From Candidatus Magasanikbacteria bacterium GW2011_GWA2_56_11 (GTDB lineage: Bacteria > Patescibacteriota > Patescibacteriia > Magasanikbacterales > UBA922): a DNA stretch of 64,000 nt. The stretch spans positions 1,459 to 65,458 of the forward strand of contig LCRX01000009.1 in the NCBI GenBank assembly GCA_001004885.1, given 5' to 3'. Position 1 is the first letter of the stretch. The number at the start of each line of letters is the position of its first letter. The notes below the pieces were generated by a model, which was given only the letters and a program-made list of their open reading frames with translations, did no database searches and was not told the origin of the DNA. The position numbers and the translations under genes were made by a program. This document shows, one piece after another, positions 2,857 through 31,277 of this stretch.

Positions 2857-3144
2857 ATGGACTGGGCGACGAGGTGTGTCCAGGAAGGCCGCCTCCCGGC
2901 CGAACTCATCCGCGACGGACAGGAAGTCGAGTTCAAGCCTGGGTGGAGGATCAGGCCGACACCGGACCGGGACGGGCCATACCGACGGTACGTCATCGAG
3001 ACGGACGTGCTGGTGCCGGGAGTCGAGCCGGACTGGCCGTTCTCGCCCCGGCAGACTCCGGAGGTGCGCTGTACGGTCTACGTGCACTGCGCCCGCGCCG
3101 CTGCTTGGGCCGCTGCCGATGAGACGTCGGCTGCTCCGGCCTAG
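2857..3144 (+). CDS. hypothetical 95-aa protein (high-GC island)
   Basis: AGGAGG Shine-Dalgarno 6 nt upstream of the ATG; third of three tandem small genes. Confidence 0.45.
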   Translation: MDWATRCVQEGRLPAELIRDGQEVEFKPGWRIRPTPDRDGPYRRYVIETDVLVPGVEPDWPFSPRQTPEVRCTVYVHCARAAAWAAADETSAAPA

Positions 3145-3542: not shown

Positions 3543-4718
3543 ATGCTCAAGTCATACATTGAAATACCGCCTTCGGCTACCCTGAGAATGAACACCCTGG
3601 CGCTCGCGAAAAAGCAGCGCGGAGAAAGAGTCTACAACTTGAGCGCGGGCGAACCGTTTTTGCCGACGGATTCGGGGGTAATTGAGGCGGCCTGTCGCGC
3701 TATGCGAGCCGGACAGACGCACTATCCGCCGGTTTTGGGCCTGCCGGAATTGCGCCGCGCGGCAGCCGAGTGGATGAACAGCACGTACGCGACCGCCTAT
3801 GCCCCGGACGAAGTAATAGCCACCTGCGGCGGCAAATTCGGTCTTTATGCTTTGTGCCGGGCATTGCTCGGGCCCGGAGACGAGGCGCTCATTATCGCGC
3901 CATACTGGGTGTCTTATCCCTCTCTGATTCAACTCGCGGGCGCGTCCGCGGTTACTGTGGCGACTGCTCCGGAGCGCGGTTGGAAGGCAAGCCGACAGGA
4001 TCTCGAACAGGCGATAACGCCGCGCACGCGGGTAATCATTTTCAATAATGCCGCCAATCCGACCGGCGTCGTGTACCATCGGGAGGAAATTGGCGCTTTG
4101 CTGGAGTGCGCGGCCGCGCACGATTTGGCCGTTGTTTCCGACGAAGTCTACAGCGGCCTGGTATACGACGGGCGCATTTTTGTCTCGGCCGGTTCTTTTC
4201 CTGAGCATCACGGCCGGGTATTCGTCGTGCAAAGCGTGTCCAAACATTTTGCCATGACAGGCTGGCGGGTGGGATTCGTGCTGGGCGATAAAGGAATTAT
4301 CGAATCCCTGGGAGTTTTGCAGAGCCAAAGCACCACCGGAACCGCCAGCATCAGCCAGTGGGCCGCCACCGCCGCCCTGGCCATGGCGCCGGCCATTATG
4401 TCCGAAGTTTCACAAAAAATGAGCGAGCGGCGGGATGCGCTGCACAGCGCGCTCCAAAGTACGTTCGGCGGCTTTGTGGCCAAACCGGCTTCAGGACTGT
4501 ACACATTGGCGGCGTTGGCCGATTTGGGGGTAAAAGATACCGCCTCGACAGCCTTTTGCGAACGCCTGCTTGAGCAGGCTAACATCGCTCTCGTACCCGG
4601 GGCGCCATTCGGCCAGGAAGGTTATGTGCGTTTTTCGTTTGGCGAAGACAGCGCGGAACTCTGCGCGGCCGTGCGGGCTTTGGGGGAGTACTTGAAAAAA
4701 ACGCGCCTTTTGGTATAA
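3543..4718 (+). CDS. class I/II pyridoxal-phosphate aminotransferase (aspartate aminotransferase-like)
   Basis: NLSAGEPFLPT, SVSKHFAMTGWRVGF (PLP-lysine region); start set at the first ATG, the ORF track begins at a TTG at 3528. Confidence 0.9.
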   Translation: MLKSYIEIPPSATLRMNTLALAKKQRGERVYNLSAGEPFLPTDSGVIEAACRAMRAGQTHYPPVLGLPELRRAAAEWMNSTYATAYAPDEVIATCGGKFGLYALCRALLGPGDEALIIAPYWVSYPSLIQLAGASAVTVATAPERGWKASRQDLEQAITPRTRVIIFNNAANPTGVVYHREEIGALLECAAAHDLAVVSDEVYSGLVYDGRIFVSAGSFPEHHGRVFVVQSVSKHFAMTGWRVGFVLGDKGIIESLGVLQSQSTTGTASISQWAATAALAMAPAIMSEVSQKMSERRDALHSALQSTFGGFVAKPASGLYTLAALADLGVKDTASTAFCERLLEQANIALVPGAPFGQEGYVRFSFGEDSAELCAAVRALGEYLKKTRLLV

Positions 4719-5041: not shown

Positions 5042-5205
5042 AGAACCTACTCCCAAAAATAATTCCGAGGCAATTTTGTGCCTGTTTCGAGCGAAAATTG
5101 TCCGGGTTGAGCAGGCTAGTGGTACTATGGCGACGAAAGCCGGACAATTTGCAGCCGAAACAGGCCAAAATTGAGCCGGAAGTTATTTTTGGAAGTAGGT
5201 TCTAG
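5042..5205 (+). mobile_element. family B MITE-like element copy B1 (about 164 bp with terminal inverted repeats AGAACCTACTCCCAAAAATAA)
   Basis: Terminal inverted repeats and an internal long imperfect palindrome; inserted inside copy A2. Confidence 0.6.
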
Positions 5206-5223
5206 TAACTCACTGTCAGTTCT

Positions 5224-7870: not shown

Positions 7871-8388
7871 ATGGAATTTACTTCTCTCCTTTTCTATTTT
7901 TTCATCATCATACCCTCGGCCATCTTTCATGAGTATGCCCACGGCTGGATGGCCGACCGGCTGGGTGATCCGACCGCGCGCTATGCCGGGCGCCTGACTC
8001 TTGACCCGCGGCCGCATATCGACAAAATCGGCACGCTGCTTTTGCCGCTGATGCTCTTCGTTTTTACCGGCGGGCGTTCTTTGTTTGCTTATTTACTTTT
8101 GGCGCCATTCTTCAGTTCGTGCCTTCCGGCAACCTGGCCGTATTTTTGTCCATTATTGTTTACGCCAATGTCCTTTTGGCGGTGTTCAATCTCGTACCGA
8201 TTCCACCCCTTGACGGATCAAAACTACTTTACGCGCTTTTGCCCGCGTCTTGGCACCAGTTGCGCGATGCGCTTGACCGGTTCGGTTTTGTATTTTTGCT
8301 CTTTTTTATTTTTTTCTTATCCCCGGTCATTATCCCCGTAATTCAGTTTGTATACCAGCTGTTCACCGCCGGAAAGGGGTTGTTCTAG
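7871..8388 (+). CDS. M50 (site-2 protease) family metalloprotease, apparently frameshifted near 8070-8090
   Basis: HEYAHG motif in frame 1 (7781 ORF); FGAILQFVP...NLVPIPPLDGSK in the next frame (8119 ORF, GTG-initiated in the track). Confidence 0.6.
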
Positions 8389-8427
8389 ATTTTAGGGCTC
8401 CCTCTCAAAGCTCTGCTGCCGACCGGC

Positions 8428-8456
8428 TTGACAAACTGCGGCGCCGGGTTTATACT
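8428..8456 (+). promoter_or_regulatory. consensus sigma70 promoter TTGACA-N17-TATACT
   Basis: Exact hexamers with a 17-nt spacer. Confidence 0.5.
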
Positions 8457-8461
8457 GAGCC

Positions 8462-8755
8462 CAGTTGCTCGTCTCTCGACGAGAGAGACCAAAGAACGGA
8501 GTAATCTCCGGTTAACCCGGAGGTGAAGCAAATCACGGCTGATTTGAACGTTCGGTACCCGCACGCTCTGGTGCGGGAAAGCCTTGGCGCGCCAAAGAAA
8601 AGCGCTGCCCTGGCTTGCCCGCTATCCCCAAAGGTAACGGGATCCGAACCTAGCCCCCTGGCTGGGATTTTTATTCCCCAACCGGATGGCCGGAGACGCG
8701 GCCGGGGAATAATAAAATTGCGATCAATATAATTTGTTAACAGTAAGCAACCGTT
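8462..8755 (+). other. roughly 300-nt structured noncoding leader or sRNA upstream of rpsL
   Basis: No ORF; several hairpins (ctccggttaacccggag, cccgcacgctctggtgcggg); lies between the consensus promoter and the rpsL start. Confidence 0.2.
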
Positions 8756-9175
8756 ATGCCGACCATGAATCAAATTTTGCGCCAAGGCCGGGAGAAAGCC
8801 CGCCGCAAGTCCAAGGCGCCGGCGCTTCAGAGTACTTACGACAGTCTCCACCGCAAGCGCACCGAGCTTACCAAGGGAAGTCCGTTCAAGCGGGGCGTGT
8901 GCACCAAGGTGTACACCACGACCCCTAAAAAACCGAACTCGGCGCTGCGCAAAGTGGCCAAGGTTCGCTTGTCGAACGGCATGGAAGTTATTGCCTACAT
9001 CCCGGGCGAGGGCCACAATTTGCAGGAGCACTCTATCGTGCTGATCCGCGGCGGACGCGTAAAAGACCTGCCGGGTGTCCGGTACCATATCGTGCGCGGC
9101 GTTTACGATACTCAGGGCGTGAGCAATCGCCGTCGCGGCCGTTCTCTGTACGGCGGCAAGCGGCCGAAGAAGTAA
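8756..9175 (+). CDS. rpsL: ribosomal protein uS12
   Basis: Unmistakable S12 sequence. Confidence 0.97.
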
Positions 9176-9255
9176 CCTCCGCTACCCCAGCGCTGTCTTT
9201 TTGAAGAGCGCCGGGCGAGGGCCACATCATTTACCAATAATTTAACTACGAGCGT

Positions 9256-9735
9256 ATGTCCCGTGGAAAGTCAGTCGTCAAGCGCGTCGTCGCACCGGAT
9301 CACAAATACAAGAGCGTCCTAGTGGCGAAGTTTGTCAATTTTATCATGAAAAGCGGCAAAAAAAGCACGGCCGAGCACATTGTGTACGAGGCGCTCGAGG
9401 CGCTGGCCAAAAAACGCAATGAACCGCCGTTGCCGATATTTGAGCGTGTTATCGACACTATCCGTCCGCAAGTGGAAGTTCGTTCCCGGCGGGTCGGCGG
9501 CGCCAACTACCAGGTGCCAATGCCGGTGTCGGGCGACCGCCAAAACGCTTTGGCTTTCCGCTGGCTGACCGCCGCGGCCAAGGCGCGCAAAGGCCATTCG
9601 ATGGCCGAGAAATTACTCGGGGAATTTGTCGATGTTCTCGACGGCACGGGTGGCGCCATGAAGAAAAAAGAAGACGTGCACCGCATGGCCGAAGCCAACA
9701 AGGCGTTTGCGCACTTTGCGCGCTTTAACCGGTAA
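9256..9735 (+). CDS. rpsG: ribosomal protein uS7
   Basis: S7 sequence. Confidence 0.97.
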
Positions 9736-9754
9736 TCAATGTCCTTTTACCCCT

Positions 9755-11830
9755 ATGCCTCGTGAATATTCACTGGAAAAAACCCGTAACATCGGCATCA
9801 TGGCCCATATTGACGCCGGCAAAACTACCACGACCGAGCGCGTTTTGTTTTACACCGGCCGCAAGCATAAAATCGGCGAGGTGCACGAGGGCGCGGCCGA
9901 GATGGACTGGATGGAGCAGGAGAAGGAACGCGGCATCACTATTACGAGCGCCGCGACTACTTGTTTTTGGAAAGACAACCGGATTAATATTATTGACACC
10001 CCGGGCCATGTAGATTTTACGGTCGAGGTGGAGCGGTCGCTGCGCGTCCTCGATGGCGCAGTGGCTTTGTTTGACGGTTCCCAGGGCGTGGAGCCGCAGT
10101 CCGAAACCGTCTGGCGCCAGGCCGACAAGTATCGGGTGCCGCGGCTGTGTTTTGTCAACAAGATGGACAAGATGGGCGCGGATTTTTACATGAGCCTGCA
10201 GTCCATCAAGGACCGGCTGTCGCGCAAAGCGGTGGCCATCCAGATTCCGATCGGCGCCGAGTCGTCTTTTTCGGCCATTATCGATCTCATTGAACAGAAG
10301 GCTTACCACTTCGAAGGCGACCACGGCATGAAAATTTCCGCTTTCGATATCCCCGAGGAGATGAAGGACGCGGTGAAGAAATACCGGGCGGAACTCATGG
10401 AAAAAGTCGCCGAGGCAAACGACGAACTGATGAACAAATATCTAAACGGCGGCGAATTTTCGGTAGAGGAGATCCGGGGCGCTATCCGCGCTCTGGTCTT
10501 GAGAGACGAGATCTACCCAGTAATGTGCGGTTCGGCGCTCGGCAACATGGGCGTGCAGCTCATGCTCGACGCGGTTACCTACTACCTGCCGGCGCCGACA
10601 GATTTGCCGGCCGTAATCGGCACCGACCCGGCCGACGAAGAAAAAAAGATTGAGGTGAACGCCAACGATGACGAGCCGTTTGTCGGGCTGGCTTTCAAAA
10701 TCGCCACCGACCCGTTTGTCGGCAAGCTGGCATTTTTCCGCGTTTATTCGGGCAAGCTGGTGGCCGGCTCTTACGTAATCAATGCCCGCACCGGGCAGAA
10801 GGAGCGCATCGGCCGCATTGTCCGCATGCACGCCAACCATCGCGAAGACGTGAGTGAAGTTTATTCCGGCGAGATAGCGGCCGCGATTGGCCTTAAAAAT
10901 ACCATCACCGGAGACACCATTAGCGATGAGAACCGGTCCGTTCTTTTGGAGAGCATTACTTTTCCCGAACCGGTTATCCATATCGCCATCGAACCCAAGA
11001 CCAAGGCCGACCAGGAGAAAATGGGCATTGCGCTGCAGAAACTGGCCGAAGAAGACCCGACATTCCGTATCCACACGGACGAGGAGACATTGCAAACCAT
11101 TATTTCCGGCATGGGCGAACTTCACCTGGAAATTATCGTGGACCGGATGAAGCGCGAGTTCGGAGTGCTCGCCAACGTGGGCGCGCCGCAGGTGGCCTTT
11201 AAAGAGACCATCCGCCAGAGCGCCGAGGCCGAAGGGAAATACATCAAGCAATCGGGCGGTCGAGGCCAGTACGGCCACTGCTGGCTCAGGCTCGAACCGA
11301 TGGAAGCCGGCCAGGGATTTGAGTTCGTGGATGAGATCAAGGGCGGGCTTATTCCGCGCGAATATATACCCGCCATTCAAAAGGGCGTCAAAGAGGCAAA
11401 AGACAAGGGTGTGGTGGCCGGCTATCCGCTGGTTGACATCAAGGCCACTGTCTTCGACGGCAGCTATCACGAGGTCGACTCTTCGGAAATCGCCTTTAAA
11501 ATGGCCGGGAGCCTGGCTTTTCAGGAAGCGGTAAAAAAGGCTTCGCCGGTAATTCTTGAGCCTATTATGGAGGTGGAGGTAACCACTCCGGAGGAATACA
11601 TGGGAGACATTATCGGAGACCTGAGCGCCAAACGCGGCCAAATCCAAGAGATGACCGAGCGCGGCCAGTCCAAGGTGGTGCGGGCCATGGTTCCCCTGGC
11701 CAGCATGTTCGGCTACGCCACTTCTTTGCGCTCCATGTCGCAGGGCCGGGCCAGTTACGCCATGGAGTTCCACCACTACGCGGAGTGCCCGAAAAACATT
11801 GAAGCTGAAATCGTGGCGGGGAGAAAGTAA
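9755..11830 (+). CDS. fusA: elongation factor G
   Basis: [20 protein letters not shown]; start set at the ATG just after the rpsG stop (the track ORF begins upstream at an alternative start). Confidence 0.97.
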
Positions 11831-11845
11831 CCGCCCGCGAATTAA

Positions 11846-12008
11846 CTAGAACCCATCTCAAAAATAATTCCGGCTCAATTTTGGCCTGTTTCGGCTGCAA
11901 ATTGTCCGGTTCTCGTCGCCATAGTACCACTATGCCTCCTCAACCCGGACAATTTTCGCTCGAAGCAGGCCAAAATTGTCTCGGAATTATTTTTGAGATG
12001 GGTTCTAA
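11846..12008 (-). mobile_element. family B MITE-like element copy B2 (inverted orientation)
   Basis: Terminal inverted repeats TAGAACCCATCTCAAAAATAA / TTATTTTTGAGATGGGTTCTAA; internal palindrome. Confidence 0.6.
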
Positions 12009-12010
12009 TA

Positions 12011-12040
12011 AACGACTCCTTGCCCGGGGTCGTTTATTTG
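12011..12040 (+). terminator. rho-independent terminator after fusA
   Basis: aacgac...gtcgtt stem plus tatttg. Confidence 0.45.
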
Positions 12041-12244
12041 TTAATCGCGCGTTTTTGTCCTGTTTACGCGAAAGCGGGTTATCCACATATCTCTTGGAAG
12101 TGCAGGTTTTTTAATGCCCAGCTTTATTGTATACTAAACAATATTTAATTAATGCCGTTTAGGCATAATTACTTATCCTACTGAACCCGCGGGAAGCAGT
12201 TAATTTTTCCTTGGGGGACGCTTTAGGGTAAGTGTATAGGACTT

Positions 12245-13930
12245 ATGCACGATTTCAAGAAAATCGGCAAAAAGTTCGCCACCCTTACCGTTGTCGGCGC
12301 GACAATGGCGTGGAGTGTCGGACTTTCCGCGCTCGTTCCGTCGGGCGTGTCGGCCGCCACTTGCCCCGAGCTCAAGGCCGGGGAGCGTTTTAAAGTGAAA
12401 GGAAACGCGGCTGTCTATCTCCTGAACGCGGAGATGCAGCGCATGTACTTCCCGAATTCGGAAGTTTACTTCACTTGGTACAACGATTTTTCGGGCGTTA
12501 CCGAAATTGACCCGTCGTGCACCGACGCGTATCCCAGCGGCGGCGGCGTTAACTACCGTCCCGGTTCCCGGCTGGTTAAAACCCCGATCTCCCCGAGCGT
12601 CTTCGTGATCGGCGTCAACAACACCAAGCACAAGCTGGAGAGCGAAGATGTGGCCAAGGCTCTGTTCGGCGCCAACTGGGCCAAGCTGGTGCGCGACCTG
12701 GCTGATGCTTTTGACGCCAACTACAAAGTCGGGCCGGCCATTACCCAGGTCAAACTCGTGGATGGCATGCTCGTTCGCAAGGCCGGCAGCTCCGAAGTGT
12801 ACTTTGTGGCGGGCGGTAAACTGAAGCTCGTCAAAGGCACCCTGCCGAAGTCTTCAAAGAATGACGTCCGCAACGTCTCGGACGAGGTGTTGGCGACGGC
12901 TGAACTCGCTTCCGACGAGGCGGCCCCGGTCGCTCTCACCAGCGATCCCACCCAGCGGGGAGGGATAGAGGTGGATACGACGGTGAGTGAAGAGCTCGAT
13001 CCGAAAGCCGGCGGTTCCGAGAATGACAGCCCGGCGGCTAACCCTGACGCGGTCGAAGCCGACCTGAAAGAGGAAGCCTCGAAGACCGACAGCTCCACGG
13101 ACACCAAGACTACCACTGACACCAAAACCACCGACACCACTACCGAGACCAAAACTACCGAGACCACACCGGCCGGCACTGGTGCCTACCGCTTTAAGGC
13201 CGGCACCGGGACCGATGCCGACGGCTGGGTCGACTGGACCAAGGTTAAAGCCTCGGACTTCTCCGGCGTCTCCGGCCTGACGGTCCAGTTGCTGCCGGAC
13301 AACGCGGTGGACTTCTCCAAAGGCCATAAGGAGAGCTTATTTGGGAGTGGCAGCTATTCATGGGAATTCCTGGAGCCCCGCACCGAGAGAAAGTACGATG
13401 TTTATAACGGCCATTACGTCATGGTCATTGACGGCAAGGCGGACACCGGCAGCTTTTACGACGACGTCGGCATCGCGGCCGAGGAGTTGGTCAGCAACCA
13501 GGGCCAGCCGACGCTCAACATCAAACGGGTAGATCTCGGGGTGGACGACGAGACCAAGTACACGGCGCGCCAGTACGCCGAAGAGTGGTACACATCCATC
13601 AAGAACGCGCTCTTGGACCTGGCCAAGAAACAGCCCCCGACAAATTGCGAGCTGACTGACGCGGCTTACGACACCAAGACTTACGGCGCGAACGAATTCG
13701 TGCTTGTAAGCTGGATTCAGGTGTGCAAGGTGAGCGGCTCGGACGGTTCGCCGTGGAAGGTGCCGGCCTACGCTTTTGCCAAAAGCAAGAGTACCGGTAA
13801 AATCCTCGCGGTCTATTTCCTCAACAGCAATCTAGACGCCCGCAAAGGCGGCACCAACGATCTTGATCCGGCCAAGGAAATCAGCAGCAAGTTTGTTGAA
13901 CAATTCCTAAGCAAGATTAAGTTCGAGTAA
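12245..13930 (+). CDS. secreted hypothetical protein with a signal peptide and a Thr-rich low-complexity linker
   Basis: 561 aa; N-terminal signal peptide; TDTKTTTDTKTTDTTTETKTTETT tract. Confidence 0.7.
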   Translation: MHDFKKIGKKFATLTVVGATMAWSVGLSALVPSGVSAATCPELKAGERFKVKGNAAVYLLNAEMQRMYFPNSEVYFTWYNDFSGVTEIDPSCTDAYPSGGGVNYRPGSRLVKTPISPSVFVIGVNNTKHKLESEDVAKALFGANWAKLVRDLADAFDANYKVGPAITQVKLVDGMLVRKAGSSEVYFVAGGKLKLVKGTLPKSSKNDVRNVSDEVLATAELASDEAAPVALTSDPTQRGGIEVDTTVSEELDPKAGGSENDSPAANPDAVEADLKEEASKTDSSTDTKTTTDTKTTDTTTETKTTETTPAGTGAYRFKAGTGTDADGWVDWTKVKASDFSGVSGLTVQLLPDNAVDFSKGHKESLFGSGSYSWEFLEPRTERKYDVYNGHYVMVIDGKADTGSFYDDVGIAAEELVSNQGQPTLNIKRVDLGVDDETKYTARQYAEEWYTSIKNALLDLAKKQPPTNCELTDAAYDTKTYGANEFVLVSWIQVCKVSGSDGSPWKVPAYAFAKSKSTGKILAVYFLNSNLDARKGGTNDLDPAKEISSKFVEQFLSKIKFE

Positions 13931-14081
13931 ACCGTTGAATCCAAAAAGAACCCCGGCCATACCGGGGTTCTTTGTTATTCAGGTGGAGTGCCGGCAAAGC
14001 AGAGGAGTTGGCTCCGGGGCGCGGCGCGTCATTGATTTTTCTTCTCTCGATTGGTATAGTCTAGGCAATCAAAAACAGCGT

Positions 14082-14810
14082 ATGAAATTCAACGTCATCA
14101 CTATTTTTCCCGGCATCATAACCGGCTATGCTTCAGAAAGTATTTTGGGCCGCGCCCAAAAGGCGGGGATTATGGCTGTCCGGGCCGTTAACCTGCGTGA
14201 TTTTACTACCGATCGCCACCAAACTGTCGACGACACCCCTTGCGGGGGCGGGGCGGGAATGGTAATGAAGCCTGAACCGATTTACGCGGCCTTGAAGAGC
14301 CTGGGCGCGATTCCGTTCCGGAAAGATGACGGACTGGCCAAGATCAAAAAGATCATGACCGGGGATATCGCCAAAAAGAAGCGCACGGTCCTTCTTTCGC
14401 CGCGAGGGCGGCAATTTGATCAGCGTACAGCCGAGCAGTGGAGCAAGCTTTCGGAATTGACCCTTATGTGCGGCCGTTACGAAGGTGTGGACGAACGGGT
14501 GGCCGAACGCATGGTGGACGAAGAGATTTCCATCGGCCCTTACGTGCTCGCCGGCGGCGAACTTGGAGCTTTGGTGATAATAGAAGCGGTGGCGCGGTTG
14601 TTGCCAGGGGTTTTGGGGAATCCAGAGTCGCTGATGGAAGAAACGCACGGCCGGACTCCGGAGGCGGGGGAGATGACCGGAGAAGAAGCGCGCGGCGAAT
14701 ACCCCCAGTACACCAAACCGGCGGAGTTTAAGGGTTGGAAAGTGCCAGACGTCCTGCTGTCGGGCGATCACAAGCGCATCGCCGAGTGGCGGCGTAAAAA
14801 TCGCCGGTAA
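14082..14810 (+). CDS. trmD: tRNA (guanine37-N1)-methyltransferase
   Basis: MKFNVITIFPG...LMCGRYEGVDERV...GGELGALVIIEA. Confidence 0.9.
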   Translation: MKFNVITIFPGIITGYASESILGRAQKAGIMAVRAVNLRDFTTDRHQTVDDTPCGGGAGMVMKPEPIYAALKSLGAIPFRKDDGLAKIKKIMTGDIAKKKRTVLLSPRGRQFDQRTAEQWSKLSELTLMCGRYEGVDERVAERMVDEEISIGPYVLAGGELGALVIIEAVARLLPGVLGNPESLMEETHGRTPEAGEMTGEEARGEYPQYTKPAEFKGWKVPDVLLSGDHKRIAEWRRKNRR

Positions 14811-14834
14811 CCAGCCTGCGCATAACAAATCCTT

Positions 14835-14860
14835 ACCCGGCCCCGGCCGGGTATTTTTTA
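14835..14860 (+). terminator. rho-independent terminator after trmD
   Basis: acccggcc / ggccgggt stem plus a T-run. Confidence 0.5.
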
Positions 14861-14962
14861 TTGGCAAAGGCTGTCAAAGGGTTTTGCCTGTGTCAGGTAT
14901 GGACTAAACGGATAAAATATAGTGGCTGAGCTTATCCACAGTTTTTGTGCCGGGAGCTGGGC

Positions 14963-14990
14963 TTGACAAGGTTTTTGGGTATGATACAAT
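14963..14990 (+). promoter_or_regulatory. sigma70-like promoter TTGACA-N16-TACAAT upstream of the 16S rRNA
   Basis: Hexamers read directly; a TTATCCACA box sits about 30 nt upstream. Confidence 0.5.
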
Positions 14991-15642
14991 GTCCAAGCCT
15001 AAAGAAATTCCCTACAACTGAAGATTTTCCCAAGTCTTAACCGACCGCTCCGGCTGGGCCGGGGCCGGGTAAAGAAACTAGGAAGAGAGAAGAGCAACCC
15101 GATTAGTAGGTTTCTCTTTTTTCTTTTGGGGGAGTGCGATCTTTACAATTTATAACAAGCAAACAACGGTAAAACCGGCACCAAATGGTGCTGGAGGTTC
15201 ACATTATAAACGTGACAAGAACCAATTCCAACGCAAGTTGGAGATCGTCTATTCTAGTATAGGAATCAACCTCCTCTGGAGCTAGTCTCCAGGGAGTTTC
15301 TCATTGTCCTTCGGGACTTTATTGAGAGTTTGATCCTGGCTCAGGACGAACGTTGGCGGCGTGTTTAAGGCATGCAAGTCGAGGGATCGGCCGTAGCAAT
15401 ACGGTACGGACCGGCAGACGGGAGAGGAACACATTGGCAACCTACCTTCGAGACGGGGATAGCCCCGGGAAACCGGGATTAATACCCGATGGTCATGGGG
15501 GGACATAAGTCATTCCCATGTAAATCATTTCTGGCTCGAAGAGGGGCCTATGCCCTATCAGCTAGTTGGTGAGGTAATAGCTCACCAAGGCTACGACGGG
15601 TAGGGGACGTGAGAGCGTGACCCCCCTCACTGGGACTGAGAA

Positions 15643-15673
<31 letters not shown>

Positions 15674-15807
15674 AAGAATCTTCCGCAATGGACGAAAGTC
15701 TGACGGAGCGACGCCGCGTGCAGGATGAAGCCCCTCGGGGTGTAAACTGCTTTTATAGGGGACGAATTTGTGACGGTACCCTATGAATAAGAGGTTGCTA
15801 ACTCTGT

Positions 15808-16673
15808 AAGCCCAAACCGGGCCTGGTGCAGAGTGATTGTGGTAACACAGTCAAAGAAAATCTCGCTATATGCTGGAAACTTCTGTTAATGGCACACTAC
15901 CTAAAAACGGTGACAATGTGTGTCAAACCCAAAAAAACGTACTACCGCACGTATAGGGGTTGCAGAACAATCAGCAGGAAACCGCAAACTACAACCGGTT
16001 TGCGGGCTCCTCAGAGACTACACGCGAGACTCCCGAGTTAGTCGGGATGATGATATAGTCCAACGAGCTCTTCATATGAAGGCAGAAGTGAAAGAAATAG
16101 TAACCGCCTCGCTTTTAGGTGATGGTTGGTTGACGGAATTGAAGCCGAGAACAGGAACCGCTATGTACTATGTGAAATATCATGGTCGTAGCCGGGATTA
16201 TCTGCAATGGCTTCACGGACAAGTTCGCGAACTTGGTCCTTCTGAACTGAAGGAAGTCGCGCGCTATGGTCAATATTATTTCTACACGAAAGCCCGAACA
16301 GACATCGGCGAACTAAGAAAACTTTTTTACCCAAACGAGGGAAGAAAAGTGATTCCGCGAAATATCCGCGAACTGCTATCTACGCCCAAAGCCTTGGCCA
16401 TTTGGTACCAAGACGATGGAACATTAGATAAACGGTCGCGTGATCATTGGAATGCAATGTTCGCTACGTATTGTTTTGGTTATGAAGAGTGCGAGCTGCT
16501 TGCGAAAACACTGAAAGATAACTTCGACCTGGCTGTATCGGTTTGCCGATGCCAGATGCGGGGTAAAATGTATTATCGGCTTTATGTGCGATCCCAAAGT
16601 ATGAATAACTTCATACGACTCGTACAGCCGCATATACACCCATCATTCAGTTACAAAATTTCGCTTAACAATG
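15808..16673 (+). mobile_element. group I intron in the 16S rRNA (866 nt) carrying a homing endonuclease ORF
   Basis: Exon 1 ends ...CTAACTCTGT (terminal U); the intron ends ...AATG (terminal G); exon 2 resumes GCCAGCAGCAGCGGTAATAC. Confidence 0.7.
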
Positions 16674-16690
16674 GCCAGCAGCAGCGGTAA
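16076..16690 (+). CDS. LAGLIDADG homing endonuclease (two-motif, intron-encoded)
   Basis: LLGDGWL and WYQDDGT LAGLIDADG motifs; the ORF reads through the 3' splice site into exon 2. Confidence 0.8.
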   Translation: MKAEVKEIVTASLLGDGWLTELKPRTGTAMYYVKYHGRSRDYLQWLHGQVRELGPSELKEVARYGQYYFYTKARTDIGELRKLFYPNEGRKVIPRNIRELLSTPKALAIWYQDDGTLDKRSRDHWNAMFATYCFGYEECELLAKTLKDNFDLAVSVCRCQMRGKMYYRLYVRSQSMNNFIRLVQPHIHPSFSYKISLNNGQQQR

Positions 16691-17636
16691 TACAGAGACC
16701 TCAAACGTTGTCCGGATTCATTGGGCGTAAAGCGTCCGCAGGTGGCATGGAAAGTCAGGGGTCAAAGCTTCCGACTTAATCGGAAATCTGCTTCTGATAC
16801 TTCCAAGCTAGAGGTTGTGAGAGGCACACGGAACTGCCGGTGTAGTAGTAAAATGCGTTGATATCGGCAGGAACACCAAAGGCGAAGGCAGTGTGCTGGA
16901 ACAATCCTGACACTCAGGGACGAAAGCGTGGGGAGCGAATGGGATTAGATACCCCAGTAGTCCACGCCCTAAACTATGTGTACTAGGTATATGGAGTATC
17001 GACCCTCCATGTGCCGTTTAAAAAAGCTAACGCGTTAAGTACACCGCCTGGGGAGTACGGCCGCAAGGTTAAAACTCAAAGGAATAGACGGGGACCCGCA
17101 CAAGCGGAGGATCATGCGGCCCTTAAGTGGGGTAACGAGCGCAACCCTCGTTGTGTGTTACATTGGACACACGAGACTGCTCGCGCAAGCGAGAGGAAGG
17201 TGGGGACGACGTCAAATCAGCATGGCTCTTACGTCCCGGGCGACACGCATGATACAATGGCCAGTACAAAGGGTTGCCAAGCCGCGAGGTGGAGCTAATC
17301 CCATAAAGCTGGTCTCAGTTCGGATTGCAGGCTGCAACTCGCCTGCATGAAGCTGGATTCGCTAGTAAACGCGCATCAGCCACGGCGCGTTGAATACGTT
17401 CTCGGGTCTTGTACTCACCGCCCGTCACACCACGAAAGTTGGCAATGCCCGAAGGCTCTCGTTCGAGGGACGAAGGCAGGGTCAATGATCAGGGTGAAGT
17501 CGTAACAAGGCATCCGTAGCGGAAGCTGTGGATGGATCACCTCCTTTCTGGAGTTACTCTCGGGAAACCGAGTGAAACTACTAACGAGTACAAAAAGAGT
17601 AGATGATCGGTTTCTTGTCACGTTTATCGTGTGAAT

Positions 17637-17667
17637 TAAAAACAGCCCTGTGGAGGGCTGTTTTTTG
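17637..17667 (+). terminator. rho-independent terminator just after the 16S (aacagccctg...cagggctgtt plus TTTTTT)
   Basis: Perfect stem plus T6. Confidence 0.6.
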
Positions 17668-17671
17668 CGCC

Positions 17672-17700
17672 TTGACGGCCCCGGTTTCTACCCCTATAAT
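17672..17700 (+). promoter_or_regulatory. sigma70-like promoter TTGACG-N17-TATAAT
   Basis: Hexamers read directly. Confidence 0.4.
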
Positions 17701-17728
17701 CCCCACGTAAAATTAACACCTTATACTT

Positions 17729-18247
17729 ATGACCAAGCGTTTCGACCGCCTGTTGTCCCTGGCCCAGAAAACCGGCAATCCGCTTATTGTCCACGATCGA
17801 TCCGAAAAGCGTGACATGGTGGTCTTGAGTGTCGACGAATACGAGATGATGCTCGACACGCAGGAGTTTGCCGGCGAGGAGCCGCTCCGGGATGTCCGGG
17901 AGTTGTCCGAGGGCGAGATGCTCGATAAGATAAACCGCGATATCGCTATCTGGCGTTCGGCGCAGGAACTAGACGGGGCAGAAGACAGGGGCGAGATGCT
18001 CGCGGAGGAATGGCGCCAGAGTGCGGTCGAAGCGACAGCCAATCGCGGCCGGCATCAGGCAGGCGAGGTGATCAGGAAAACTTATCCGGCAGAGAGTCCG
18101 GACGCCGCTATCCGCTATGAGCCTGCCGGCGAGGAATCGTTGACCGGCCCCCAGCCCATTCCCGAGGCGGCCGCCGAATCGGCGGCTATCGGAGGCGGGG
18201 AGCCGCTCGAAGGCGACCCGATATTCTTTGAGGAACCGGTGGAATAG
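17729..18247 (+). CDS. hypothetical acidic protein; the N-terminus weakly resembles Phd/YefM antitoxins
   Basis: 172 aa; LIVHDRSEKRDMVVLSVDEYEMM pattern; very acidic C-terminal half; no partner toxin nearby. Confidence 0.55.
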   Translation: MTKRFDRLLSLAQKTGNPLIVHDRSEKRDMVVLSVDEYEMMLDTQEFAGEEPLRDVRELSEGEMLDKINRDIAIWRSAQELDGAEDRGEMLAEEWRQSAVEATANRGRHQAGEVIRKTYPAESPDAAIRYEPAGEESLTGPQPIPEAAAESAAIGGGEPLEGDPIFFEEPVE

Positions 18248-18270
18248 CCCAACAATCCCCAGATTATCCC

Positions 18271-18299
18271 TTGACTTACCGGTGCGCTTTCGTTATAAT
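18271..18299 (+). promoter_or_regulatory. consensus sigma70 promoter TTGACT-N17-TATAAT upstream of tuf
   Basis: Hexamers read directly; TTATCCACA lies 14 nt downstream. Confidence 0.5.
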
Positions 18300-18440
18300 C
18301 CTAGACGCAATCGGTTATCCACATATTTTGGCTACATTAAGCGCTGCTTATTGTAACCAATTATTTTTTTACTAACTGTTATATCGCTGGTTCACAAATC
18401 TGCTTTAGCCACCTAAAGCAGTGCGATATACGCCAACCGT

Positions 18441-19631
18441 ATGGCAGATTTTCAGAGAACCAAGCCACACGTCAACGTCGGTACCATCGGTCACGTCGAC
18501 CACGGTAAAACGACGACCACCGCGGCCATCCTTAAGGTAGCCGCCGCGCACGGCCTCAACGCCGACCTTAAAGAGGTAAACGACCTCGACAAGGCGCCGG
18601 AATCCAAAGCGCGCGGCATCACCATCGCGACCGCGCACGTCGAGTATGAGACCGAGAACCGCCACTACGCGCACGTTGACTGTCCAGGCCATGCCGACTA
18701 CGTCAAGAACATGATCACGGGCGCTGCCCAGATGGACGGCGCTATCCTCGTGGTTTCGGCTGCCGACGGTCCCATGCCCCAGACTCGCGAGCACATCCTG
18801 CTCGCCCGCCAGGTCGGCGTACCGTATATCGTCGTGTTCCTCAACAAAGTTGACCAGGTTTCCGACCCGGAGCTCATCGACCTCGTGGAAGAGGAAGTGC
18901 GCGATCTTTTGAAGAAGTACGAATTCCCCGGCGATGTTACTCCGGTGATCCGCGGTTCGGCCCTGAAGGCCCTGGAGAATCCGAACGACGAGGCCGCGGC
19001 CAAGCCGATAATGGATCTTCTGAAAACCCTGGATGAGTACATCCCGGAGCCGCAGCGCGATCTCGACAAACCGCTCCTGATGCCGATCGAAGACGTTTTC
19101 TCTATCGAGGGACGCGGCACCGTGGTTACCGGACGTATCGAGCGCGGCAAAGTGAAGATCGGCGATGAAATCGAAATCGTCGGCATGAAGCCGGAGACGA
19201 TGAAGACCACCGTTACCGGTATTGAAATGTTCAACAAGAGCCTGCAGGAAGGCATGGCCGGCGACAACGCCGGGGTCCTTCTGCGCGGCACCAAGAAGGA
19301 CGAAGTGGAGCGCGGCATGGTGCTCGCCAAAACCGGCACTATCAAGCCGCACACCGAGTTCGAGGCCAAGGTGTACGCCTTGACCAAAGAAGAAGGCGGC
19401 CGCCACAAGCCCTTCTTCAACGGTTACAAACCGCAGTTTTACATCCGCACGACCGATGTAACCGGCGAGGTAACTCTCCCCGAGGGCACCGAGATGGTGA
19501 TGCCGGGGGACACGACCAATCTCAAGGTCAAACTCATCATGCCGGTGGCTATCGAAGAACAAATGCGCTTCGCTATCCGCGAAGGCGGCCGCACTGTCGG
19601 CGCCGGCGCGGTAACCAAGATTCTTGTCTAA
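18441..19631 (+). CDS. tuf: elongation factor Tu
   Basis: [21 protein letters not shown] motifs. Confidence 0.97.
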
Positions 19632-19641
19632 TTATCGACGA

Positions 19642-19677
19642 CCGCCCCCCGACTTGAGCCGGGGGGCGGGTTTGTTC
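19642..19677 (+). terminator. GC-rich hairpin terminator after tuf
   Basis: ccgcccccc...ggggggcgg plus gtttgtt. Confidence 0.45.
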
Positions 19678-19695
19678 CTTAACCGGATTTCTGGT

Positions 19696-20058
19696 ATGAC
19701 CCCGACTGATACGACAATCAAGAAGGCAGACAAAGACGACGCCGCGAACGCCGGCCCCAGGGTGCGCATCAAAATCAAGGCCTACGACCACAAAATCATT
19801 GATACGGCCACCAAGACTATTATTGACACGGCCGAGCGCAACAACGTCAAAGTTATCGGCCCGGTACCCCTGCCGACCCAGATCAGCAAATACAGCGTTA
19901 ACCGTTCGACTTTCGTGCACAAAACTGCCCAGGAGCAGTACGAAATGCGCACGCACAAGCGTTTGATTGATATTATCAGTCCGTCGCCCAAGGCGCTCGA
20001 CGCTCTTATGAACCTTAACTTGCCGAGCGGGGTGGACGTGGAAATCAAAATGATGTAG
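19696..20058 (+). CDS. rpsJ: ribosomal protein uS10 with a short N-terminal extension
   Basis: RIKIKAYDHKIIDTA...GPVPLPT...THKRLIDI; start moved downstream of the terminator hairpin. Confidence 0.9.
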   Translation: MTPTDTTIKKADKDDAANAGPRVRIKIKAYDHKIIDTATKTIIDTAERNNVKVIGPVPLPTQISKYSVNRSTFVHKTAQEQYEMRTHKRLIDIISPSPKALDALMNLNLPSGVDVEIKMM

Positions 20059-20400
20059 TCCGAGGTTTTTGGGATGTTCGGGTGTGGACAGAGCCCCTAT
20101 TTCTACTTGACAGAGGCGGCGGCATAGTATACACTATCGCTGCCATCAAAGCCCATTGGCAGCTGGCCAGATAAGATCCCCAAGCTTTAGGTTTGGGAGA
20201 AAACATCTGGGAAGAGTCCCATGGGTAGAGGAGTAATGTTGCCTTAAATTAAGAACAAAGCCGTTATTCTTGCGAATAAGAGGCTAGAAGGCAGATCGTG
20301 GAAGTTGGTTTGTGGCCAGAATCCGGCCCTCCGACGTCCTCCCCGGTTTACCTTCTAGTTTTTTATATCACGATCAGACTAGAGTTGAGATTTCTGGACT

Positions 20401-20955
20401 ATGAAGTTCATTGTCGGTAAAAAAATAGGCATGTCCCAGGTTTTTTTGAATAACGGCACGGTTGTGCCGGTAACGCGGATTCAAGCCGGGCCATGTGTCG
20501 TTACCCAGATCAAGTCTCAAGCCAAAGACGGCGTAGACGCGGTCCAGGTGGGTTTTGGAATTCAAAAAGCATTTCGTTTGAGCCGCCCTGAACAGGGCCA
20601 TCTCAAGGGCATTGACATGGGAACCGGGTTAACCGTGCGTTTTTTGCGGGAGCGACCAATGGCCGAGGCCGCCGATCTTAAGCGCGGTGATGTTTTTACA
20701 GTGAAGGTTTTTTCCCCGGGCGAGAAGGTCCAAGTGGTTGGCACCTCAAAAGGCAAGGGCTTCCAAGGCGTGGTCAAACGCCATGGCTTTGCCGGCGGTC
20801 CGGCCTCGCATGGACACAAGGACAACCTGCGCATGCCGGGAAGTATCGGTGCCGGCGGCGTCCAGCGCGTGTTCAAAAATATGCGTATGGCGTGGTTATC
20901 TCTACCCCCGAAGGCAAGATTGAAGTTGAAACACTTCCCGTGGAAGCGCCGATAG
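20401..20955 (+). CDS. rplC: ribosomal protein uL3 with an atypical C-terminus
   Basis: GKKIGMSQVF...GTSKGKGFQGVVKRHGF...PGSIGAGG; the conserved C-terminal VTVQNL...VKGAVPG segment is not found in any frame. Confidence 0.85.
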   Translation: MKFIVGKKIGMSQVFLNNGTVVPVTRIQAGPCVVTQIKSQAKDGVDAVQVGFGIQKAFRLSRPEQGHLKGIDMGTGLTVRFLRERPMAEAADLKRGDVFTVKVFSPGEKVQVVGTSKGKGFQGVVKRHGFAGGPASHGHKDNLRMPGSIGAGGVQRVFKNMRMAWLSLPPKARLKLKHFPWKRR

Positions 20956-21100
20956 CCGCCGAACCCGCCGCGTTGGCGCCAGCCGCCCCGGTCGAAGAGA
21001 TTTTGCCAGACGAAACGCCGGCCGAACCAGCTTCCGCGGCGGCCACAGAAACGGCAGAGCCAGATGAGAAATCCGCCTAAGGGCGCAACCAGGATAGAAT

Positions 21101-21730
21101 ATGACCAAAGTTAAAGTCTACAATCCAGCGGGCGAAGCTGTTCGGGAAATTGAACTGCCGGCGGTCGTGTTCGGTATCTCTCCCAAGTCCGAAGTAGTGC
21201 ACCAAGTCTATACCGCCCAGATAGCCAATGAACGCGAACCCTGGGCCGACACGAAAGACCGCGGCGAGGTTCGTGGCGGCGGCAAAAAGCCCTGGAAGCA
21301 AAAGGGTACCGGGCGGGCCCGCCACGGTTCGATCCGGTCGCCGATTTGGAAAGGCGGCGGCGTTACTTTCGGGCCGCTGTCATGGCGTAATTACGCTCAG
21401 AAAATCAACAGAAAGATGAAACAGCTGGCAGTTAAAATGTGCTTGGCCGACAAGGCGTCCAACGGCACTTTGGTCGTTTTGACCGAGTTGCCGTCAGACG
21501 GAAAAACGAAAAGTTTGGCCGAGTTACGCCGGCGCTTGCCGGGCGACAACCGTCGGGCAGTGGTCTTGACGGCCGAGTATGACGCCGCGGCCCTCCGGGC
21601 CGGACGCAACGTACCGCAGACCCAGGTTCGCGAAGCCCGTGAAGTCAGTGTGGTAGACCTTTTGCGCTTTCAATACGTAATCGCGACCGAAGCGGCGATT
21701 AAGGTGCTCGCCGAGCGTTTGACTCGTTAG
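21101..21730 (+). CDS. rplD: ribosomal protein uL4
   Basis: L4 sequence. Confidence 0.95.
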   Translation: MTKVKVYNPAGEAVREIELPAVVFGISPKSEVVHQVYTAQIANEREPWADTKDRGEVRGGGKKPWKQKGTGRARHGSIRSPIWKGGGVTFGPLSWRNYAQKINRKMKQLAVKMCLADKASNGTLVVLTELPSDGKTKSLAELRRRLPGDNRRAVVLTAEYDAAALRAGRNVPQTQVREAREVSVVDLLRFQYVIATEAAIKVLAERLTR

Positions 21731-21759
21731 TTTTTGCCCCCAAATTCCTGATCAGCTAT

Positions 21760-22185
21760 ATGGGAATACTTGAAAAAATCAAAAAAACCAAACCGGACTC
21801 CGAAGCTGGAGCCAGCGTTGACGCCGGGGAAAAAAAGCCGGCCGGGCGCAAAGGCAGCGTCGCGGCGCCAACAGCGGCCCCGGAGAAACACGCTGCCCGG
21901 GGTCTGGCATACCGCATTTTGCTTAAGCCTTTGCTGAGCGAAAAAGCGACTCACGGAGAGCGCCACGGGGCCTATATTTTTATGGTGGCTAAAACCGCCA
22001 CTAAGCCCGAAATTGCCGCGGCTGTCCAAGCGGTGTACGGAGTGAAACCGCAAAAAGTTAATACTGTCAGCCTGGAGGGCAAAGAAGTCCGTTTTGGCCG
22101 CCGCACCGGCCGCCGCAAGGGCTGGAAAAAGGCAGTGGTTTTTTTGCCCAAAGGCAAGTCAATCAGCATTCACGCCGGAGTTTAG
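21760..22185 (+). CDS. rplW: ribosomal protein uL23 with a Lys/Ala/Pro-rich N-terminal extension
   Basis: LLKPLLSEKAT...IFMVAKTATKPEI...GKEVRFG. Confidence 0.9.
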   Translation: MGILEKIKKTKPDSEAGASVDAGEKKPAGRKGSVAAPTAAPEKHAARGLAYRILLKPLLSEKATHGERHGAYIFMVAKTATKPEIAAAVQAVYGVKPQKVNTVSLEGKEVRFGRRTGRRKGWKKAVVFLPKGKSISIHAGV

Positions 22186-22200
22186 GGTTACGCTACCGCT

Positions 22201-23046
22201 ATGACCATAAAACACTACAAACCAACTACCCCAGGCCGCCGCAAAGCCAGCGTGCAGGATTTTTCTGATGTTACGAGCGGCAAACCCGTGCGGTCGCTGG
22301 TCAAAGTTTTGAAACAGCACGCCGGCCGCAACAATAGCGGCCAGATTACGGTGCGCCACCGCGGCGGCGGAGTTAAGCGTTTGTACCGTCTCATTGACTT
22401 CAAACTCACGAAGTACGACGTTTCGGGCACCATAAAGACTATTGAATACGATCCGAACCGCGGCGCCCGCATCGCTCTCGTAGAGTACGCCGACGCGGAG
22501 AAAGCGTACATCGTGCTTCCGCAGGGGCTAAATGTCGGGGATAAAATTATTTCTTCGAGCGGTCCGGTGGAAGCAGCTCCCGGGGTGCGGATGCCTCTTA
22601 AGTACATTCCGGTCGGTTTGTTTGTTTACAACATTGAATTGGAGCCTGGCCGGGGCGGCCAGCTGGTGCGCAGCGCCGGAGTCGGGGCGCAGATACAGAC
22701 GCTTGAGGGCGGTTATGCCCAGCTAAAGTTGCCTTCGGGCGAGATCAGAATCCTGCCGGAGGCCTGCCGGGCGACTATAGGGCAGGTAAGTAACCCCGAC
22801 TTTAAGCTGGTGCGTTTGGGCAAGGCCGGTCGCAAGCGCCACATGGGCTGGAGGCCGGTGGTGCGCGGCAAGGTAATGAACCCGATTGACCATCCGCACG
22901 GCGGCGGCGAGGGCCGCAATTCGATTGGTTTGAAAGACGGTCCGAAAACAGCCTGGGGGAAACCGGCGTTGGGCGTCAAGACTCGCCGCCACAAGAAGTC
23001 CAGCGATAAACTTATTATTCAGCGCCGGAAAGCACGGAAGAAGTAA
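22201..23046 (+). CDS. rplB: ribosomal protein uL2
   Basis: L2 sequence. Confidence 0.97.
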
Positions 23047-31103: not shown

Positions 31104-31112
31104 GTTTAGACC

Positions 31113-31277
31113 AGAACCTACTCCCAAAAATAACTTCCGGCTCAATTTTGGCCTGTTTCGGCTGCAAATTGTCCGTCTTTCGTCGTCATAATACCATTAT
31201 GCCTCCTCAACCCGGACAATTTTCGCTCGAAACAGGCACAAAATTGCCTCGGAATTATTTTTGGGAGTAGGTTCTAG
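31113..31277 (-). mobile_element. family B MITE-like element copy B3 (inner core in the B2 orientation)
   Basis: Terminal inverted repeats AGAACCTACTCCCAAAAATAA / TTATTTTTGGGAGTAGGTTCT; 165 bp. Confidence 0.6.

Follow-up and report, generated by a model that had tools for sequence, protein, structure and literature searches.

The 132-nt gap in the 16S rRNA gene of Candidatus Magasanikbacteria bacterium GW2011_GWA2_56_11 is almost certainly an assembly error

Does this CPR bacterium build its small ribosomal subunit without the core of the head, or is the public sequence of its 16S rRNA gene defective? The question is raised by a locus in the window (i.e. the whole 64-kb stretch of DNA that was analyzed), which derives from a CPR bacterium of a groundwater metagenome. 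An earlier note, made from the sequence alone, had reported that the gene jumps from about E. coli position 950 to about 1090. A genuine reduction (if real, a striking ribosome modification), a mis-removed second intron and an assembly collapse had been offered there as explanations. The comparisons described below indicate that the gap is almost certainly an assembly error in contig UY92_C0009 of GW2011_GWA2_56_11 and not a biological feature.

The 16S rRNA gene lies on the forward strand at 15324-17549 and holds one group I intron at 15808-16673. A scan with the Rfam models split the bacterial SSU into two matches (15318-15868 and 16479-17547), separated by a match to the group I intron model. 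Exon 1 (15324-15807, 484 nt; 409.8 bits with RF00177) ends in ...CTCTGT at ca. E. coli position 516. Exon 2 is divided by the junction under study into a left part (16674-17119), which ends in ...GGATCATGCGG at ca. position 954, and a right part (17120-17549), which carries the 3′ end, ...GGATCACCTCCTTTCT. The exon lengths of 484 and 876 nt sum to 1360 nt, in agreement with the earlier estimate. All E. coli numbers used in this study are our own, with the 968F and 1100R primer sites as anchors.

The borders of the 866-nt intron, which is also on the forward strand, were taken from intron-less relatives, in which the equivalent of 15318-15807 aligns immediately beside that of 16674 onward. The insertion site is after ...CTCTGT (ca. 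E. coli 516) and directly before GCCAGCAGC. The Rfam Intron_gpI match (15798-16084) scored 50.7 bits, barely above the gathering score of 50. A U precedes the first base of the intron, and its last base is G. Within it, on the same strand, is an open reading frame for a single-domain LAGLIDADG_2 homing endonuclease of ca. 204 aa (16076-16690; Pfam PF03161 on record), whose stop codon is located 17 nt inside exon 2 (GGTAA of GCAGCGGTAATAC). Group I introns that carry LAGLIDADG genes are well documented in the 16S genes of CPR bacteria (PMC11270868).

The surroundings of the gene were inspected over window positions 8000-23000. On one side are the str operon (S12, S7, EF-G), a 561-aa protein that has no Pfam match on record, and a TrmD-like gene; on the other are a 172-aa protein (exact match to KKW42217; “antitoxin” according to UniRef), tuf (18441-19631; the EF-Tu is an exact match to KKW42218) and the S10 operon. 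KKW42217 and KKW42218 are both proteins of GW2011_GWA2_56_11, encoded on contig UY92_C0009 (91,613 nt). The 16S gene stands alone; no 23S or 5S gene follows it in this region. Two stretches of ca. 165 nt (5042-5206 and 31106-31276), one of them on the opposite strand, are 89-91% similar to a part of the EF-G region (window ca. 11842-12007; positions 3908-4073 of the contig L004). They form a short dispersed repeat.

At the junction between 17119 and 17120, the window reads ...CACAAGCGGAGGATCATGCGG followed directly by CCCTTAAGTGGGGTAACGAGCGCAACCC, and the 16S sequence passes from ca. E. coli position 954 to 1087. The missing stretch is therefore E. coli 955-1086. The gap that had been noticed is indeed in the window sequence, although its size is 132 nt and not ca. 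150 nt. The structure-based alignment proposed in the earlier note was carried out with the Rfam model and bears out the gap. The SSU model aligned cleanly to its position 944 (...GGAUCAUGCGG at 17119) and then skipped to ca. 1077; model positions ca. 945-1076 received only scattered letters of low confidence, and high confidence returned at ...CGAGCGCAACCC. The gene in the window accordingly fails to give the continuous match to RF00177, including the 3′ major domain, that marks a complete gene. Lost from it are h31, the 5′ strand of h32, h33/33a, the 5′ strands of h34 and h35, and h36. Two conserved blocks that had been named as absent are indeed so: neither had a match with three or fewer mismatches anywhere in the 64-kb window. 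A permissive Rfam scan of the same 64 kb found no further SSU fragment and no second copy of the 16S gene. The spurious 95-aa open reading frame that spans 17119/17120 was looked up and is not on record.

The TTAAGT remarked upon at the junction is present, and it is not filler. The Rfam alignment of L009 (described below) identifies it as part of the helix 37 hairpin, CCC-UUAAGU-GGG (CCCTTAAGTGGG; 17120-17131, forward strand), the stem of which is flipped relative to the GGG-UUAAGU-CCC of E. coli and of the Rfam consensus. The flipped stem was also seen in 32 metagenome contigs, but the search pattern used to find them demanded it. One related contig, L011, has CAG...CUG in place of the flipped stem.

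Contigs of other assemblies were recovered by exact-protein look-ups. Two of them, L009 (ENA ERZ27254745, k141_2030847) and L050 (JGI 3300025088, Ga0208246_1001095), are, to judge by their sequences, two independent assemblies of the population from which the window came. L009 matches all 7,200 nt of window positions 9920-17119 at 100.000% identity; 132 extra nt follow, after which it is 99.92% identical to 17120-20891. The corresponding figures for L050 are 100% (15073-17119) and 99.97% (17120-20891). The 132-nt block is identical in the two contigs (L009, 7201-7332; L050, 2048-2179), with the ends TTTAATTCG...GAGGTGTA (TTTAATTCGATGGTACGCGACGAACCTTACCGGGGCTC...GTGCCGTGAGGTGTA), and in the window's population it is flanked by GGAGGATCATGCGG and CCCTTAAGTGGGG. 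A third contig, L015 (SRR1658466, PRJNA268031), extends 16 nt beyond the junction, into TTTAATTCGATGGTAC. L010 and L011, two related contigs, have the block as well.

With the block in place, the gene including its intron measures 2358 nt, compared to 2226 nt in the window, and the mature 16S would have a canonical length of ca. 1492 nt. In the stretch of L009 that was searched, SSU model positions 834-1533 were matched continuously (621.6 bits), and the model runs without a break and with high posterior probability across 917-1240. As shown here, then, the same strain has the missing block in cis. The organism's true 16S is an ordinary SSU of the CPR type, ca. 1492 nt long, with h31-h36 of the head intact; its only interruption is the group I intron after position 516, which carries the LAGLIDADG gene.

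The base pairing between the block and the nucleotides that the window retains was also examined, with the pairs of the Rfam consensus placed on the L009 sequence by alignment. The model ties the block to retained nucleotides through 30 base pairs (one at the end of h30, seven in h32, 15 in h34, six in h35 and one at the base of h37), and 28 of the 30 are standard. The strands left partnerless in the window are all 3′ strands on the forward strand of the DNA. That of h35 (ACGAGC, 17135-17140) makes six of six standard pairs with the block of L009, and these pairs are invariant in 20 relatives. That of h34 (17210-17228) has 15 model pairs into the missing block, 14 of them standard, and three h34 pairs show changes on both sides among the relatives. 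That of h32 (GUCCCGG, 17233-17239) has seven of seven pairs standard. Columns 62/311 of the alignment, in h32, contain UA, AU, CG and GC among the relatives; the window keeps a lineage-specific C in h32 whose G partner occurs in the missing block of L009 and L037 and nowhere else.

In the alignment of 20 distinct relatives, pairs between block and window form in 93.2% of the cells, whereas in a control in which the partners were slid by 1-3 columns only 27-47% of the cells pair; six of the block-window pairs change on both sides. Genuine loss of a helix would take away both of its strands. Here, instead of a whole stem-loop or a helix tip with both strands gone, 30 partner nucleotides remain. 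The loss of one strand only, with the partners intact, conserved and co-varying, argues that this is not genuine helix loss.

Relatives were surveyed with two patterns. The wide pattern (both clade-specific flanks, 100-130 nt apart) was run on the JGI metagenomes and returned 32 contigs, all with a block of 130-132 nt, from a collection that is not exhaustive, as Ga0208246_1001095 has the pattern yet was absent from the matches. There were 17 distinct block sequences when those of L009 and L010 were included in the count. The absence is thus shared neither by the same strain elsewhere nor by its relatives: L009, L050, L015 and the 32 contigs all have the block. The comparison with CPR relatives that the earlier note had recommended does not bear out a reduction.

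The narrow pattern (0-30 nt between the 945 and 1100 anchors) was run on GTDB species genomes and on the JGI metagenomes. No metagenome contig matched, and none of the public contigs scanned had the window's junction. A single match came from the GTDB species genomes, among which the window's own genome is not included; it is an unrelated Nitrospirae MAG (L001, CAMYMF010000053.1). The 16S of L001 contains a tandem 36-nt duplication (3000-3070 / 3640-3660 region) along with a collapse from ca. 970 to ca. 1095 that spans the 8-nt repeat ACGCAACG. The collapse and the duplication together imply that the 16S of L001 is itself an artefact.

A second deletion was found on the same contig, 3.8 kb from the 16S junction. 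The open reading frame of rplC (uL3; 20401-20955, forward strand) is frameshifted by a clean 115-nt deletion at 20891/20892. L050 has the 115 extra nt and encodes a full uL3 of 264 aa (...MRMAGHMGSEQVTVKNLEVVEV...KGAVPGARNGVVVISTPEGKIEVE...), whereas the uL3 of the window shifts frame to ...MRMAWLSLPPKARLKLKHFPWKRR and a stop. Position 20891 is the exact end of the contigs L009 and L003; L050 reads through it. In another contig, L002, there is a small error of its own at the same spot. With two such junctions, the segment 17120-20891 behaves like a single contig set directly against its neighbors on both sides, with the sequence of the gaps lost.

L003 (JGI Ga0209211_10055074) is 100% identical to the window except that it is without 62 nt inside tuf. 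The gap falls at its positions 2137-2138 (window 19414-19475), and the EF-Tu call is split into 331 + 43 aa. L003 would therefore be another assembly of the population with an internal deletion of the same kind.

The 16S junction is located where other assemblies also falter. L004, which matches the window at 100% identity along 9 kb, ends at 17096, and L006, L012 and L014 end or switch to the conserved sequence of another organism at ca. 17116; contigs from several assemblers break or switch organism at ca. E. coli 930-970. The site is thus an assembly break point. A comparison with window positions 13424-17559 gave L010 and L011 an identity of 98.9-99.9% before the junction and only 88-89% after it, and their downstream genes differ from those of the window. 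This behavior suggests that assemblers may switch between co-occurring Magasanikbacteria inside the conserved 16S stretch. L010 and L011 themselves could be either chimeras joined in conserved 16S or the outcome of rRNA recombination between co-occurring Magasanikbacteria.

An assembly artefact should be missing from independent assemblies with otherwise identical flanks, should sit where contigs end elsewhere, and may be accompanied by further joins that damage essential genes of the same contig. The 16S deletion is missing from L009 and L050, contigs of four other assemblies end at 17096-17116, and the uL3 gene is broken by its own deletion. That other assemblies of the same bacterium hold the 132 nt at the exact spot is the ground for calling the gap an assembly error and not a reduced ribosome.

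As to how the error might have arisen, microhomology was sought at both 17119/17120 and 20891/20892 and amounted to no more than 1 nt, with none at the 16S junction, which makes repeat collapse, or a simple collapse of the de Bruijn graph, unlikely. The suggestion of an assembly collapse was thus right as to an artefact and probably wrong as to its mechanism: there is no shared repeat, and an end-to-end join fits better. The best inference is that scaffolded contigs were joined end to end or that a gap was wrongly closed. A first contig would have ended in the universally conserved 16S stretch at ca. E. coli 950, and the next would have begun at ca. 1087; the two would then have been placed end to end, with neither the sequence between them nor any N characters. 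Which program or curation step made the join can only be surmised. For a sister genome of this data set, automated error fixing with ra2.py and the manual filling of gaps and joining of scaffolds were described in a later paper of the same group (PMC5220378), which bears on the window only indirectly.

Could the deletion nevertheless be real, and very recent, in a sub-population of the Magasanikbacterium, leaving an rRNA gene that is dead or a head that is radically reduced? It is what the window sequence itself shows, and the deletion is clean, spanning exactly E. coli 955-1086. If it were true, the only 16S of the GWA2 sub-population would be without that region, and the ribosome would be without the core of the small-subunit head; alternatively, a cell line would have been caught just after a lethal deletion. 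Against this, the flanks show no decay, as they match intact copies of the locus at 100% and 99.9% identity, and the 3′ strands of h32, h34 and h35 were kept and are still complementary to the missing block. In the ribosome, h31 and h34 contact the P-site and A-site ligands, and both are in the missing part. The window offers no second 16S copy, the junction appears in no other assembly, and uL3 is broken by the other deletion, at a distance of 3.8 kb. Moreover, where reductions of the 16S have been reported in CPR bacteria, they concern surface stem-loops (PMC9297842). A recent deletion is accordingly very unlikely, and the claim of a striking ribosome modification is refuted by the same-strain assemblies, which carry the 132 nt, and by the retention of the paired 3′ strands.

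The retained 3′ strands would need a partner, and this would also be so if the rRNA gene were fragmented, with the 955-1086 piece encoded elsewhere and joined in trans as in some organelles. A search of the 64-kb window found no such separate piece, while the block lies in cis at the exact position in L009, in L050 and in all 32 related metagenome contigs; the probability of a fragmented gene is negligible. Removal of a second intron or intervening sequence together with exon sequence would be in keeping with CPR 16S genes in so far as they often hold several insertions (PMC11270868). However, none of the 36 related 16S copies examined had an insertion at 954/955 or 1086/1087, and the window is raw contig sequence with its one intron still in place. 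The mis-removed intron, of which no relative shows a sign at the site, is therefore extremely improbable. An assembly error remains by far the preferred reading.

The organism has a 16S of the kind usual in CPR bacteria, and the gap is therefore of no biological interest. The practical value of the result is modest: a public Ca. Magasanikbacteria reference genome has a defective 16S and a frameshifted uL3 because of silent contig joins, and searches of such genomes for reduced ribosomes, or for ribosomal proteins that lack domains, could be led astray. As a rule, where only one strand is said to be lost from each of several long-range helices and the partners are conserved, an assembly error should be assumed unless reads contradict it.

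Among known systems are assembly mis-joins in conserved rRNA, of which L001, the only other genome found with a jump from 945 to 1100, is an example; that of L001 runs over a repeat and that of the window does not. The insertion in the window resembles the CPR group I introns with LAGLIDADG genes in that it occupies a highly conserved site (PMC11270868); this intron is a real feature, 450 nt upstream of the gap at 17119/17120 and unrelated to it. The 16S reductions of CPR bacteria (16Gap1-5; Tsurumaki et al. 2022) affect whole stem-loops or tips, all of them surface-exposed; those named are h6, h10, h17 and the tip of h44, and nothing like the loss of h31-h36 is reported there (PMC9297842). 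The likeness of the window to these systems is confined to its CPR host and to a restored 16S of ca. 1492 nt, which falls below the 1542 nt of the E. coli molecule. In contrast to the CPR reductions, the gap in the window lies in the functional core of the head, where h32, h34 and h35 each lose a single strand, and other assemblies of the strain do not show it.
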